This document shows, piece after piece, positions 27,152 to 48,913 of a DNA stretch of 64,000 nt. The notes below the pieces were generated by a model. That model was not told the DNA's origin. It ran no database searches and was given only the letters and a program-made list of their open reading frames with translations. Both the position numbers and the translations under genes were made by a program. The DNA is from a virus (taxonomy: Duplodnaviria > Caudoviricetes), in IMG/VR virus record IMGVR_UViG_2690315872_000001, positions 27,292-91,291 of that record. One strand, written 5' to 3'. Within the stretch, counting starts at the first letter, position 1. The number at the start of each line of letters is the position of its first letter.

Positions 27152-27526
27152 TCACTCGTGCGTAGCGGTGGCGCGGCTGGTGGCATTCCGTCTGGCGAGG
27201 CGTTCCAGGATGTCGGGGTGGTCGTCGAGGACCTCGTCGGTTTCCCGGTCGCCGGTGTAGTGGGTGCCAGCGGCGGTGCGGCGCAGGGTGTGCGCCTCCG
27301 GGGTCACGGTGAACAGTTTAGCTGCCTGAACGGGACGTCCGAGCAGGGCGCTCAGCACGTTGACGATCTTGGAGAGGGATTCGAGGTCGATGCGTTTGAC
27401 GCCGCTTTGGCGGGTCATGGCGTAGATGGTGTTGCGGTTGAGTTGCCCTTCCAGTTCGCGTTCCAGGCGGTACGCGCTGATGTCGTGGGCCTGCATCAGC
27501 CGGTGCAGATCGAAAGTGACGGTCAT
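27152..27526 (-). CDS. Cro/C1-type HTH regulator
   Basis: Pattern [10 protein letters not shown].....LNRNTIYAM.....[10 protein letters not shown]. Confidence 0.8.
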
Positions 27527-44768: not shown

Positions 44769-44793
44769 AAAGTGTATATCAAGTGGACATTTT
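44769..44793. promoter_or_regulatory. Operator OL overlapping the leftward promoter
   Basis: AAAGTGTATA-N5-TGGACATTTT matches the two other copies; contains a minus-strand TACACT -10. Confidence 0.75.
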
Positions 44794-44880
44794 TGACAAC
44801 ATTCGTCTATGATGGCGATGGCTCAAATTTCGCACCGCGCAGGGCATTCAACTGCTAGCGTAAAGATTCAAAGGAGAACG

Positions 44881-46203
44881 ATGACCCTCGACACCCCGCA
44901 GGAGATCGACAAGGCCCTTCGAAGCCGTGCGCTGGACATGCTGGACACGATTGATCGACCCAATGGACACATTCTTCGTGCGCGCGTCGCGCTGTTCTTC
45001 CAGCGCCGCGCCGCCATGGTGGAATCCCTCCATGAACTGGAAGACCACACGGACATCCAGTCGCGCGGCCTGAGCATCCTGCTCTGCGCGCAGCTGGGCC
45101 TGCATGAAGATGCGTTGAGCCTGCCCTTCGCGGATACGGAGGTGGACGCGGCCGAACTCAATGACCAGGACGGCGCCTACTGGGCGCACCTGGGCCGCAC
45201 GGCCGCTCTCGTCGCCCAGGATCAGCCGCTGCTGGCGCTCGAGGAACTGGGTATGGCACGGGTGTACGCCATCCGCATCGGCATCCAGGAACACATCGAG
45301 TACGTCATGGGCGAGCGGCAGCGGATCGCGGGGAACGCCGGGTTCGGTTGCGCCGAGCAGTCCGCCAGGGTGCTGCGGCAGATGCGGCCCGGCACGGGGA
45401 TTCACCGCTGGCATGAGCAGACGTACCTGACCGATCGGCTGGCCGAGGGGAGTTACGCGGTGGTGGCCCACCGGGACTTCGGTGGGCGGCCAGCTCACGC
45501 ACTTGCCCGCGCCCTGCTGGGTAACGGCGCCTCTACCGATTCGGGGGAGCACCCCCTCCACCGGGCCGCCGAGATGTTCCGCGCTGTCCGCGACGGCCGC
45601 GCCCCGGGCGTCCCCATGTCAGGGACTGGCATGGTCAATACGTATACCCGGATCGCTGCTGGCCTGCACCTTGCCGGGCACGCCCGGACGTCCCGCCAGG
45701 CGGTCGCCGTGCTCGGTGAGCAGGTGCCGCGCCGCGCCGATCAGCGGGTGCTGTGGGCGGTCGCGCACCTGCAGGCGTTCGTCTACGGCGCCGAGGTGGA
45801 CAGCCCTCTGGTGCTGCCCAGCGAGATTTCCAGCGCGCTTGACCGACTGAAGGAAACGGCTGGTGTGCTCGACTACCTGTCCGCGTCGGCGCCGGAGGCG
45901 CTGCTGCTGATGGCGGTCGCGCCGAATGCTCACCCGGCGGTCGTGCTGACGACAGCGGGCCTTTCACTGGACGGTGACCCGTCCGTGCTGGGTGAGATCA
46001 GGGGGCGTGTGGCGAGTGCCGCGGCGGTGCAGAGCGGTATCAACCGCATGGTGATTGCAGCTGCGGATGCGCAGCGGCGCGGCCTTGAGCGTCAGTGGGC
46101 TCAGGCGCATGCCACCCTGCAGTTCATGCTGCCGGACGCCGGAAATGTAAGCCAGAGTGTCCATTGTGGAGACGTGGCAGGAGGTGCGACAGTGAAGGCG
46201 TGA
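44881..46203 (+). CDS. All-helical TPR-like protein, candidate peptide receptor (RRNPP/AimR/Rap-like)
   Basis: AAGGAG RBS; 440 aa, Ala/Leu-rich helical; TPR-like segment AYWAHLGRTAALVAQDQPLLALEELGMARVYA; coupled to a secreted-peptide gene. Confidence 0.6.
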   Translation: MTLDTPQEIDKALRSRALDMLDTIDRPNGHILRARVALFFQRRAAMVESLHELEDHTDIQSRGLSILLCAQLGLHEDALSLPFADTEVDAAELNDQDGAYWAHLGRTAALVAQDQPLLALEELGMARVYAIRIGIQEHIEYVMGERQRIAGNAGFGCAEQSARVLRQMRPGTGIHRWHEQTYLTDRLAEGSYAVVAHRDFGGRPAHALARALLGNGASTDSGEHPLHRAAEMFRAVRDGRAPGVPMSGTGMVNTYTRIAAGLHLAGHARTSRQAVAVLGEQVPRRADQRVLWAVAHLQAFVYGAEVDSPLVLPSEISSALDRLKETAGVLDYLSASAPEALLLMAVAPNAHPAVVLTTAGLSLDGDPSVLGEIRGRVASAAAVQSGINRMVIAAADAQRRGLERQWAQAHATLQFMLPDAGNVSQSVHCGDVAGGATVKA

Positions 46204-46364
46204 AAACCTTCATCACCGGTCTGCTGGCTCTCGTTCTCTCGGCTGCTCCCGCGTTCGCGGCGGGGCAGCCGTCTTCATCTGATCAGTCCGTTCAGCTGAT
46301 CAAGGTCACGCCGAAAAGCAGTGGCCCCGCTCTGCTGAACGACGACACCTGCCTCGGCTGCTGA
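46200..46364 (+). CDS. 54-aa secreted propeptide, candidate signalling peptide
   Basis: GTG overlaps the upstream TGA. Sec signal MKTFITGLLALVLSAAPAFA|A, polar linker, C-terminal LLNDDTCLGC. Confidence 0.75.
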   Translation: MKTFITGLLALVLSAAPAFAAGQPSSSDQSVQLIKVTPKSSGPALLNDDTCLGC

Positions 46365-46368
46365 CCGT

Positions 46369-46938
46369 TCAGTCCGGCTGCTTGTACAGCGTCGCCATCA
46401 ACTGACCCAGGATTCGCCCCCGACCTTTCGCCAGGTCTGCGGGAAGAGCGAACAGTTCGCCGTCCTCTGTTTCCATGACGACGAGGCCTGAGAGTTTCTT
46501 GTTTGGGTTGACTCGAATCGAATGACCGGTGCCGGCGGTCGTGGCACCCTGGAGTGGGACTTTCAGTTCCCATTCCAGGACGTTTTTTAGCTCTGTGCCG
46601 TGCCCGAGATCAGCGCGAAAGGTCCGGAAGGTACTCCGGTGTTCTTCCGGGATGTTGAAGTACTCCCAGGCTTCCGTGTCGGATAGGCCCATGGTGCTGA
46701 GGAGGCGCTGTGCGGTGTTCTGTCTCATGGCGGCCAGATCGAGTTCGCCTGAGATGTATGCGGAGAGGGTTGACCGGGCAATGGCGCTGTCGCGGGCGAA
46801 GTCGGTGAGGAAGTAGTCGTTGCTGTCGAGCCAGTGCTGGAAGGCCTGCCCTCGGTCCGCAGGAGACTGTACCTGTGCAGGCATGGGGGTGACTTTCCGT
46901 CGCCTGTACTTGGTTTTGCTCGTTTCCCGTTCGACCAT
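46369..46938 (-). CDS. Phage CI-like repressor (XRE HTH)
   Basis: AGGAGG RBS; HTH LTDFARDSAIARSTLSAYISG; divergent from a cro-like gene. Confidence 0.75.
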   Translation of the reverse strand: MVERETSKTKYRRRKVTPMPAQVQSPADRGQAFQHWLDSNDYFLTDFARDSAIARSTLSAYISGELDLAAMRQNTAQRLLSTMGLSDTEAWEYFNIPEEHRSTFRTFRADLGHGTELKNVLEWELKVPLQGATTAGTGHSIRVNPNKKLSGLVVMETEDGELFALPADLAKGRGRILGQLMATLYKQPD

Positions 46939-46954: not shown

Positions 46955-46979
46955 AATGTGTCCAACTATAGGACACTTT
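46955..46979. promoter_or_regulatory. Operator adjacent to the repressor RBS
   Basis: AATGTGTCCA-N5-AGGACACTTT. Confidence 0.75.
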
Positions 46980-47062
46980 ACATCACAATTTTATTCCTGC
47001 GCGTCGAAACGTCCGGTTCATGAAGCCGATGCGGTTCTGAACGAAATTTCACCTGCTAGGCA

Positions 47063-47087
47063 AAAGTGTCCATCAGATGTACACTTT
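47063..47087. promoter_or_regulatory. Operator OR overlapping the cro promoter
   Basis: AAAGTGTCCA-N5-TGTACACTTT; contains a TACACT -10 located 6 nt before the cro ATG. Confidence 0.78.
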
Positions 47088-47091
47088 ATCC

Positions 47092-47322
47092 ATGAAGGTT
47101 CTGTCCCCTGAAAATCTGGTCGCCAAGCGACTGGGGGCGAAGTACGCCAAACGCGCGCCCGCAGCGCGTGCAGCGCGCATCAACCGCAAAACCTTGATCG
47201 GCCTGGAACAGGGCGACATCAAGGAACCCAGCCACCGCGTCCTCAGCGGGCTCGCCCGCGCCTACAAGTGCAGCATCGACGATTTCTTCACCGAGGTCGC
47301 CGAGTCCACCCCCGCCGCCTGA
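47092..47322 (+). CDS. Cro-like XRE HTH protein (leaderless)
   Basis: AARAARINRKTLIGLEQGDIKEPSHRVLSGLARAYKCSIDDFF. Confidence 0.85.
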   Translation: MKVLSPENLVAKRLGAKYAKRAPAARAARINRKTLIGLEQGDIKEPSHRVLSGLARAYKCSIDDFFTEVAESTPAA

Positions 47323-47346: not shown

Positions 47347-47878
47347 ACGTTCCTGACACGGCGATACCTCGACCGCCGCAACGACGAGGATCCAGGGCGC
47401 AAGCCCAGCGTGCGTGCACGCGAGACGCATAACAAGACGCCGCTGAGGCCCAGACAACACTGTCCACCGGCCCAGCACACCGAACTTCCGGCTCTGTCTC
47501 ACAGGACCGTCCCTCAAACCGGCTCAACGCCTCCAGCAGTCTCGCAACCGACGCTGAAGACGTCACAGACAGGTGAGTGGATCCATCCTCCGACGGGGTT
47601 TGACCGTGAACATGCGGCGGAGAGCGCATGTCGGGCGAGCAGCCCGGCCAGATAACTACGGATTCTGGTGAACCACTCCGCGCCGAGATCTCCCTGACGG
47701 CGCGTCACAGCGGGAGAGGCGGGCGAGACCCCGCCAGAACACGTCGGAACTTTAGAGGCCACCCACGCGGCCGAGAGCAGCAAAGCGTGGGCTGGTGCCC
47801 GGCCGAACTGGGCACGCGAAGCGGCGCGAGACGCCGCCCCGAACACTCAACCCCCGCGCCCACCCCCGGGCGCGTCAC

Positions 47879-47928
47879 GGAACGGCCCAGCTGGTGGGCT
47901 GCCGGTTCGAGTCCGGCCCGTTCCCTCA
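47879..47928 (+). ncRNA. tRNA-like element lacking the anticodon arm
   Basis: Acceptor stem GGAACGG/CCGTTCC; D-like arm CCC-AGCTGGT-GGG; T arm GCCGG-TTCGAGT-CCGGC. Confidence 0.7.
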
Positions 47929-48862
47929 CCCTGCCCGACCCTGGTAAGTCCCTCCGGGGTGAGTCGTCAACGCCAACTGAACACTGGCGTGATCACCTCA
48001 CGGTCCCGCACGGGCCGTGTTGACAGTGAGACGCCGCCGTGACCACCTGCACCGGTCAGCGGCTGACCACGCGGACCCCCTGCGCCGGGGATGAAGGTCC
48101 GGAAACCCAAATCAGGGGCACTGGCGCGCCCCGCCTCCCCACCGTGGTCCTCAGCGCCTCCCGTGCACGGGGGAGCCCGACAAGTGCTGAGCCTGGAGGT
48201 AACGCCATGGGTAAGGTGCGTTCCGCGACCGGCGGTCCCGGTCAGTGCTGCCGCGACCCGCCCTCACGGGGGTCAACGCCCATTCCACAGTGAGAAGTCA
48301 GGCCGCAGCGCCTGGCCTACACGCACCACGTGGTGCGCGCCCGTGACCGCCACCCCACCAGCAGCGAACCGCCCGCCCCACAGAGGGCAACTCGCGGCCC
48401 TGCACACCGGGAAGGTCACCCCAGACGCGGGGAGCAGCGTGACCGTCAGGCGGAGAGACGCCGGGACCCGAGCAGGCGCGGACAGCGCCTCGCCTCCACC
48501 CGCCGGAGAACGCGCGGAATCACCTCGTACAGCGTCGCGGCCCCCAGGCCGCACGGTTTCTCAGGGGCCACCCACCGACGAGGGCGGCCCCGTACTCTTG
48601 ACCGCTCACCGTGGAGGTGACCTCCCATGCTGTTCCAGCAGTGCAGTCACCTCCACACGTGACGGCCCCGCGCGGGCCGACCGACAGCCCCGCCGGGGGG
48701 TGAAGCCCGGCCACACCACCGCTGGAGGTGTCCCGCGATGTAACTGCTCAGCTGCGACGCGCGTCCCTTCGCCCCATGCCGCCCACTCCGGGAGGTTCCC
48801 ATGAAGTAGCCGTCCCTCATGTCCGCGAGGTGTCATCGGCCATCCCGACCGGGTGGCCGTCA

Positions 48863-48913
48863 TCCCGGCCCAGGCAGGGCCACGCGCGGGTTCGACTCCC
48901 GCCGCTGGGACCA
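48863..48913 (+). ncRNA. Second tRNA-like element with encoded ACCA 3' end
   Basis: TCCCGGC/GCTGGGA stem; T arm GCGGG-TTCGACT-CCCGC; ends in ACCA. Confidence 0.62.

Follow-up and report, generated by a model that had tools for sequence, protein, structure and literature searches.

Does a temperate phage of a Deinococcus-type bacterium carry, inside its immunity region, a peptide signalling system of its own? The question is raised by two adjoining genes in a 64,000-nucleotide (nt) stretch of viral DNA (positions 27,292 to 91,291 of the IMG/VR record IMGVR_UViG_2690315872_000001), which we call the window and to which positions refer below unless a contig or locus is named; it is the last 64 kb of the 91,291-bp contig C6 of genome G000 (68.7% GC). 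The first gene encodes a protein of 440 amino acids (aa), here called the sensor, and the second a 54-aa putative propeptide. An earlier note on this DNA had given the pair an arbitrium-like interpretation, which our analysis supports. Our preferred reading, to which we assign a probability of about 0.6, is that the cassette would provide a temperate Deinococcus-type phage-plasmid with a peptide signal of the Rap-Phr or arbitrium kind, built from unrelated parts and working on the switch by way of protein contacts. The observations behind this reading are (i) the two genes and their coupling, (ii) the fold class of the sensor, (iii) the near-universal pairing of the two genes among relatives, (iv) selection on the C-terminus of the small product, and (v) the fixed position of the pair beside a repressor-like gene under a shared operator.

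The sensor gene (44881..46203, plus strand) encodes a 440-aa cytoplasmic protein of the tetratricopeptide repeat (TPR) superhelical type, as judged from the open reading frame (ORF), its Shine-Dalgarno sequence, the GC content at third codon positions, an AlphaFold2 model and structural comparison with VIA-align. It begins with an ATG at 44881 behind AAAGGAG and ends with a TGA at 46203, inside a GTGA in which the small gene starts. The GC content by codon position (0.76/0.49/0.80) is a coding signature like that of the local genes; in the last 250 nt it is less pronounced. We preferred the start at 44881 to an upstream ATG at 44809, because the homologue P0004 begins at the same residue and because 44813 is the last position of a promoter-like -10 hexamer. 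The sensor/peptide stretch recurs in metagenome contigs from lake water and groundwater; a 78.8-kb contig covers it, differing at 19 of 2701 bases. Among the natural variants listed (20 further variants exist), 11 are synonymous and 2 non-synonymous in the sensor gene, and a single, synonymous one falls in the small gene. Thus, the ribosome-binding site, the codon-position GC and the natural variants bear out the two overlapping ORFs that the earlier note had described.

A search of 1.84 billion representative proteins returned only 22 sequences, the query included, at E <= 0.001; the two closest relatives are P0025 (71% identity) and P0004 (49%). No family was matched by the sensor in Pfam at E up to 1 (including no HTH, AAA, GerE or TPR_MalT) or in PHROGs, the 22-sequence profile found no PDB chain sequence at E up to 10, tblastn gave no match in phage and plasmid collections, and the single-protein search gave no relative in the sets of viral contigs and genome contigs. 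Neither a signal peptide nor a hydrophobic segment is visible in the sensor sequence. Four residues, G190, Y192, Y255 and D287, are invariant across the family (22-sequence alignment A1). A LanC-like cyclase or another enzyme had been considered for the sensor and was dropped, since no Cys or His is conserved across the family. A long subfamily carries an insertion of roughly 45 residues marked by KLPGRTG. The sensors of the short subfamily (the window protein and homologues P0004-P0011) have a His-Cys pair about 12 residues before their common ...(L/V)(E/K/Q/R)A end (residues ~425-440; window 46153-46200). This tail is disordered in the model, with a predicted local distance difference test score (pLDDT) under 50, and its conservation may be at the nucleotide level, because the region overlaps the ribosome-binding site of the peptide gene.

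The AlphaFold2 model of the sensor, based on alignment A1, is all-helical, with 25 helices, a pLDDT of 89.2 and a predicted template modelling score of 0.87; only residues 422-440 are disordered. It was matched to known structures by an exhaustive comparison with VIA-align and by a second comparison run on the candidates of Foldseek. The best match is MalT domain III (DT3, PDB 1hz4), with Z 17.9 and a root-mean-square deviation of 4.5 A over 305 of 366 residues (model residues 23-362). After MalT, the exhaustive comparison gives RapI (Z 11.7), AimR (10.6), NprR (10.0) and PlcR (8.4). In the second comparison, ranks 2-9 are all RRNPP receptors with Z 12.6-14.1; phi3T Rap with its pheromone reaches 14.1, SPbeta AimR 13.9 over 291 residues (AimR range 13.9-12.6), and RapJ 13.6; NprR has 12.2, and generic TPR proteins (APC3, OGT) rank lower, at Z 11.9 or less. 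The matches cover model residues 1-416 as repeat helices; we take them as evidence of a fold class and not of kinship, because Z values of 12-14 can occur between unrelated helical repeats. A TPR-type fold had been set beforehand as a test of the proposal, and the modelled superhelix, with RRNPP receptors among its best matches, agrees with it.

The structural neighbours of the sensor in the Protein Atlas are the TPR parts of MalT/LuxR-type (STAND) regulators; the feature-based Atlas comparison gave unnamed or weakly named clusters at 0.92-0.93 and was uninformative. As the earlier note had observed, no N-terminal helix-turn-helix (HTH) was found, nor any other HTH in the sensor, by Pfam or by structural matching. 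According to the model, then, the sensor is a stand-alone sensor-type TPR superhelix. It resembles the RRNPP receptors in being a cytoplasmic TPR superhelix; similarity in sequence or profile to Rap, Rgg, NprR, PlcR, PrgX, AimR or ComR was not found with Pfam, PHROGs or the PDB-sequence profile. From the MalT-like STAND architecture, which combines a NOD ATPase, a superhelix and a LuxR-type HTH in one protein, it has the superhelix only.

The propeptide gene (46200..46364, plus strand; 54 codons) starts with a GTG, read as M, at 46200 within the GTGA that holds the sensor stop codon, and this overlap couples its translation to that of the sensor gene. The encoded product opens with a predicted Sec-type signal peptide of 20 aa ending in AFA (46200..46259, plus strand), recognized by simple rules: a K or R at residues 2-5 (here K at residue 2), a hydrophobic run of 10 or more residues, and A-F-A before the cut, which is followed by another A. 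The C-terminal core NDDTCLGC (46338..46361, plus strand) is the presumed mature signal, as suggested by C-terminal conservation in relatives. The propeptide matched PHROGs only at E 0.1 or weaker. As a measure of background under comparable but loose criteria, 16 of 78,884 start-defined ORFs of 30-90 aa in the six frames of G000 combine a signal-like start with a C..C end; two of the 16 are the window propeptide gene, and one is a remnant on contig C4. This small C4 ORF (G000:C4:4483-4608) ends in ...SDGVGPCSGC, the same core as in the peptides of L036-L038, and has neither a convincing signal peptide nor an adjoining sensor; flanked by ORFs for a polymerase-like protein of 772 aa and an ATPase-like protein of 692 aa, it looks like what is left of a second cassette.

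Is the association of the two genes a general one? Relatives of the sensor at 24-31% identity were found by single-sequence search in 12 of the 124 other genomes of the host's family. The sensor profile matched 21 of these 124 genomes, 18 of them with a full-length or, in G071, fragmented copy, and gave only weak partial matches in other families of the phylum; full-length or fragmented relatives were thus found only in these 18 genomes, which differs from the occurrence of RRNPP systems in Bacillota and mobile elements. We read 24 related loci (the window, L002-L016 and L032-L039). At 23 of them the sensor is followed by a co-oriented small ORF with a signal-like start (K/R at residues 2-5 and a hydrophobic run) and a C-x-x-C within its last 8 residues, starting anywhere from 4 nt before the end of the sensor stop to 78 nt past it. 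Eighteen of the 23 peptide ORFs end exactly at the second Cys and five extend 1-4 residues more; Pro stands ahead of the first Cys in 21. The 24th locus, L003, has a CxxxC variant (CGGDC) with a 14-residue tail. The expectation that homologues would keep a downstream signal-peptide ORF with a variable C-terminus was therefore borne out, the C-terminus varying between lineages and being kept within them. An adjacent co-oriented gene for an exported propeptide, with the signal assigned by rules, is also the arrangement of RRNPP systems.

Sensors of the short subfamily have a conserved ...LEA end that falls on a GGAGG and on the ATGA or GTGA overlap, an arrangement that fits translational coupling. 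Two much more distant sensors, which belong to a different family of the order (L040 and L041; open frames of 631 and 608 aa), are each followed by a small ORF, ending in ...ALA-QWCTRC and ...AYA-EICVRC, respectively; because the predicted signal cut falls right before these last residues, the mature product would be a mere hexapeptide. L042, a weak partial TPR match with no visible peptide ORF, was not counted as a locus of the family. At L028 (G071:C7), positions 596-2024, one TGA and frame changes split the sensor into three fragments, beside an intact gene for the peptide (ending MDPCPWC) and an intact repressor-like gene; this element may still send the signal without responding to it. 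On a single 189-kb contig the sensor occurs twice (G082:C8:3320-4756 and 97736-99172), in copies about 94 kb from each other and with identical scores, which may reflect a large repeat or a duplicated element.

Comparison of related loci shows where the small product is constrained. The C-terminal 8-mers are identical at 7-8 of 8 positions in five of eight related pairs, and the pro-regions are about 40% identical. The last eight residues agree fully between L036 and L038 (sensor identity 50%; pro-region 24/56), at 7 of 8 positions between L037 and L038 (75%; 21/56), L008 and L015 (51%; 8/19), and L009 and L016 (38%; 9/22), at 5 of 8 between L010 and L034 (50%; 14/55), and at 4 of 8 between the window and L002 (pro-region 10/31), a pair that is not among the closest sensor pairs listed. 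Among the last 10 codons, six differ between L036 and L038, all six synonymously; for the other pairs, the ratios of synonymous to non-synonymous changes are 5:1, 3:1, 5:2, 2:3, 3:4 and 2:3. The constraint lies on the C-terminal amino acids rather than on an element of the DNA or RNA: selection at the amino-acid level holds the last 8-10 residues while the pro-regions, which are long, variable and rich in Pro, Thr and Ser, drift. Between lineages the core takes many forms (CLGC, CHGC, CMGC, CAEC, CPKC, CPWC, CGGC and others). This variation tracks the relatedness of the sensors (Mantel r 0.61, reached in 0 of 5000 permutations; 24 loci), a signal partly expected from the linkage of two genes alone. 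The Mantel test and the core table exclude L013/L028, where the sensor is in pieces, and L003.

The pair had been placed between a leftward operator and the repressor gene, and the repeats around it confirm this position. A palindromic 26-nt operator-like site of the type AAAGTGTCC...GGACACTTT is present in three copies in the window: copy 1 at 44769..44794, copy 2 at 46955..46980, just upstream of the repressor-like gene, and copy 3 at 47063..47088, overlapping the start of a cro-like gene. The repeat search grouped all three as D1, copies 1 and 3 as the inverted pair I2 (81% complementary), and copies 2 and 3 as I4. Copy 1 overlaps two divergent promoter-like sites, one for the sensor operon (plus strand, 44784-44813) and one for the early operon that runs leftward (minus strand, 44799-44771); 2 such sites were found versus 0.5 expected. 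Copies 2 and 3 flank the interval between the repressor-like and cro-like genes. In 10 of 22 relatives, the regions upstream of the sensor and upstream of the repressor-like gene have a common word of 11-15 nt, mostly palindromic and specific to the element, which is reached by at most 4 of 100 mononucleotide shuffles, a lenient control. Working with exact words, this test misses the imperfect copies of the window itself, where 98 of 100 shuffles reach it. A terminator scan (3 sites versus 2.2 expected) was not informative. On the strand of the sensor operon, a 12-bp hairpin with a T run behind it (46548-46579, plus strand) falls within the convergent repressor-like gene, at a distance of 184 nt from the peptide stop. 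A read-through transcript that is antisense to the 3' end of the repressor gene could terminate there; the hairpin may also be due to chance.

The repressor-like gene, family fam1 (46369..46938, minus strand), is convergent with the cassette. Its model (pLDDT 88.5) has five helices, a conserved disordered linker and a small beta domain, and the helical part matches XRE-type HTHs with Z values up to 8.9, among them C.BclI (8.8), DdrO (8.5), ComR (8.5), P22 c2 (7.6), ImmR (7.3) and 434 repressor (7.0). Of the 'cI-like' assignment made earlier, the XRE-type HTH is borne out; for the C-terminal beta domain, Pfam gives no match, S24 included, and no Ser or Lys is invariant among 12 homologues. For these reasons we call the protein repressor-like and not cI-like. 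In the alignment used (A2), the window protein was taken from the internal ATG at 46884; 46938 is the likelier start. The divergent cro-like gene (47077..47322, plus strand) encodes a small HTH protein (Pfam HTH_26, E 6.8e-05; HTH_3, E 2e-04) assigned to transcription regulators in PHROGs.

Neighbour clustering of 16 loci identified the sensor, the peptide, the ~200-aa fam1 protein, a small HTH protein, an integrase and a ParB-N protein as recurrent. A fam1 hidden Markov model located this gene convergent and downstream of the pair in 22 of 24 loci, at 19 of them within 141-697 nt of the end of the sensor fragment; it was not found at L018 and L019. At L020 (5977-8958, minus strand) and L030 (4794-7769, minus strand), a ~990-aa protein with AAA_22/AAA_16 and MalT-like TPR parts is encoded between the peptide and repressor-like genes, on the strand of the sensor in one case and on the opposite strand in the other. 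About 1.5 kb of the window between the cro-like gene and a 176-aa ORF (47350-48900) lacks codon periodicity, with GC of about 0.7 at all 3 positions. Neither a tRNA nor an Rfam match reaching the gathering score lies in this part, which may encode a large non-coding RNA or consist of decayed DNA.

What kind of element carries the cassette? Contig C6 encodes the large terminase subunit, portal, head protease and major head protein, as well as a tail-fibre-like protein, an endolysin, a ParB-like protein, an integrase, a second integrase and a 795-aa ParB-N protein. Because it holds phage structural and packaging genes together with ParB-like and integrase genes, it is a tailed phage-plasmid or extrachromosomal prophage; its ends were examined for an overlap proving a circle, and none was found. 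The host genome contains DdrB (E 2.5e-61), a protein that among 14 control genomes occurs only in Deinococcus radiodurans, and we therefore call the host Deinococcus-type. Together with the phage-plasmid genes on C6, this fits the probable Deinococcus phage of the earlier note. Besides the chromosomal copy, a second match to the DdrB family lies on the 147-kb replicon C4 (G000:C4:57590-57970, E 2.5e-40). The host genome also has seven matches to SBP_bac_5 peptide-binding proteins. No ImmA-type M78 peptidase is encoded on the element; two are encoded on the host chromosome.

These observations suggest the following working scheme. The operon would be fired from the promoter that overlaps one operator copy and, because of this overlap, is expected to be active along with the early genes in the absence of the repressor or after its removal. 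The small gene would be translated in coupling with the sensor gene, and its product exported by Sec and trimmed to a short C-terminal C-x-x-C peptide, approximately (N)DDTCLGC, in which the Cys pair may close a disulfide. The peptide would accumulate with the number of cells carrying or infected by the element, be imported by a host oligopeptide permease (one of the seven SBP_bac_5 systems) and bind in the groove of the cytoplasmic TPR superhelix. The sensor, having no DNA-binding domain, would most likely contact the adjacent XRE-type repressor or its partner, in the manner of pLS20 Rap and ICEBs1 RapI. Peptide binding would switch the activity of the sensor off and so bias the element to lysogeny or maintenance.

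Several points weigh against the peptide-signal reading. Pfam at E up to 1 and the PDB profile at E up to 10 give no sequence or profile link of the sensor to any RRNPP family, and Foldseek finds nothing at E <= 0.001 either in PDB, where generic TPR/PPR entries appear at E 0.02 or weaker, or in BFVD. The best fold match is MalT domain III and not an RRNPP receptor, the Z values of 12-14 for the latter being within the range of unrelated helical repeats. RRNPP pheromones are described, in the accounts drawn upon here, as unmodified linear peptides, and the near-invariant Cys pair could instead mean a redox, metal or enzymatic role. The window peptide has Thr in place of the usual Pro ahead of the first Cys. 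Signal cleavage was judged by simple rules only, the escape of the peptide from a cell with a complex envelope is an assumption, and a Mantel signal would be expected of two linked genes in any case.

Among the other explanations, one takes the TPR protein for an anti- or co-repressor that senses an intracellular cue, the co-expressed peptide not being its ligand and acting outside the cytoplasm in superinfection exclusion, in blocking an envelope receptor, or as a periplasmic thiol or metal factor. MalT domain III, the best fold match, senses a small molecule, and C-x-x-C is a classic motif of redox and metal proteins; moreover, the near-invariant Pro-Cys-x-x-Cys (Pro in 21 of 23) leaves few positions for receptor specificity, and in G071 the peptide gene is intact beside a sensor in three pieces. 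However, the stop-start overlaps or short gaps and the pairing at 23 of 24 loci suggest a stoichiometric or functional linkage, the residues that vary around the Cys pair track the sensor lineage, and the bare hexapeptides kept by the two distant sensors are too small for most extracellular protein roles. On balance we consider this explanation rather unlikely.

Selection on an extreme C-terminal Cys pair behind long and variable Pro/Thr/Ser-rich pro-regions would also be expected of a precursor of a secreted bioactive peptide, whether bacteriocin-like, metallophore-like or modified, with the TPR protein as its chaperone, immunity factor or regulator. Such an identity is very unlikely, given that the genes found repeatedly next to the pair are the repressor-like, cro-like, integrase and ParB-N genes, with none for a modifying enzyme, a transporter or immunity among them; the start of the product is an ordinary signal-like one and not the leader of a ribosomally synthesized and post-translationally modified peptide, and the cassette always lies within the immunity region. 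Least credible is a defence or abortive-infection moron, in which a stand-alone STAND-like sensor domain would detect a protein of an invading phage and the peptide would serve as effector or signal. The Atlas neighbours of the sensor, being TPR parts of STAND-type regulators, and the ~990-aa AAA/TPR protein at L020 and L030 point in this direction, yet the sensor itself lacks both an NTPase and an effector domain, just 2 of the 24 loci have the STAND gene, which in one case lies on the opposite strand, and the mature peptide would be tiny and hydrophilic.

The reading of the cassette as a peptide signal of the phage-plasmid thus describes a layout known from other systems, realized by an unrelated sensor family in the immunity region of a Deinococcus-type family of phage-plasmids and prophages. 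If true, it would mean that communication between viruses arose at least twice, and it would offer a simple two-gene system for testing in a genus that is non-pathogenic and genetically tractable; a cysteine-pair pheromone could also tie phage decisions to redox state. A bolder version would have phage-to-phage communication invented independently in Deinococcota, with a MalT-type superhelix as receptor and a redox-switchable disulfide ring of 6-8 residues as pheromone, so that the lysis-lysogeny decision combines phage density with the oxidative state of the radiation-resistant host; in this full form we consider it improbable.

How does the cassette compare with the systems already described? 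RRNPP systems, arbitrium included, are treated as a feature of Firmicutes/Bacillota and mobile elements in the relevant sections of PMC10075063, PMC9765709 and PMC9232636. A full-text search for RRNPP or arbitrium together with Deinococcus or Deinococcota, with subscription journals and supplementary files outside its scope, found no such system described. The layout is closest to that of Rap-Phr systems (pLS20, ICEBs1 RapI-PhrI, phi3T). In these, the gene for a cytoplasmic TPR protein without an HTH precedes that for an exported propeptide with the signal in its C-terminal part; they are carried by mobile elements and act, as we propose for the present sensor, on an N-terminal-HTH repressor by protein contact, according to the account in PMC8014075. 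As summarized there, pLS20 Rap, an RRNPP protein lacking an HTH, is an anti-repressor: it releases the HTH repressor Rco from the operators of the latter and loses this activity when Phr* causes Rap to tetramerise; ICEBs1 RapI promotes the ImmA-dependent loss of ImmR (PMC8014075). The structural likeness extends to phi3T Rap (Z 14.1), RapJ (13.6) and RapI (11.7). In contrast to Rap, the present sensor has no detectable sequence homology to that family and has MalT domain III as its best fold match, its host is Deinococcus-type and not of the Bacillota, the extreme C-terminus of the peptide bears a near-invariant (Pro-)Cys-x-x-Cys, the repressor gene adjoins the cassette directly and is convergent with it, and the ImmA-type M78 peptidases are those of the host chromosome and not of the element.

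The arbitrium system of SPbeta-like Bacillus phages (AimR-AimP-AimX) has in common with the cassette a phage-borne receptor gene followed by a propeptide gene in the lysis-lysogeny region, and AimR matches the sensor at Z 13.9 over 291 residues; the two are without sequence homology. AimR binds DNA via an N-terminal HTH and drives aimX, whereas the present sensor has no detected HTH and, since only 4 nt separate the cassette from the convergent repressor gene, no third, aimX-like gene fits. AimP peptides are hexapeptides and are not known to contain cysteine. The arbitrium peptide inhibits its receptor and so favours lysogeny, as outlined in PMC9232636. MalT domain III (PDB 1hz4), the sensor superhelix of STAND/LuxR-type regulators, is the top structural match, and the Atlas structural neighbours of the present sensor carry GerE, AAA_16/AAA_22 and WHD_MalT domains. 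Unlike MalT, the present protein is a free-standing superhelix that lacks a NOD ATPase, a winged helix and a LuxR HTH; it is only 9% identical and gives no Pfam TPR_MalT match, and its gene is coupled to one for a presumably secreted peptide, which is not the case for MalT. In its layout, the cassette resembles Rap-Phr and arbitrium; it is not a demonstrable member of RRNPP, given that the sequence tests fail, that the taxon is not one of the Bacillota, and that MalT domain III heads the fold matches.

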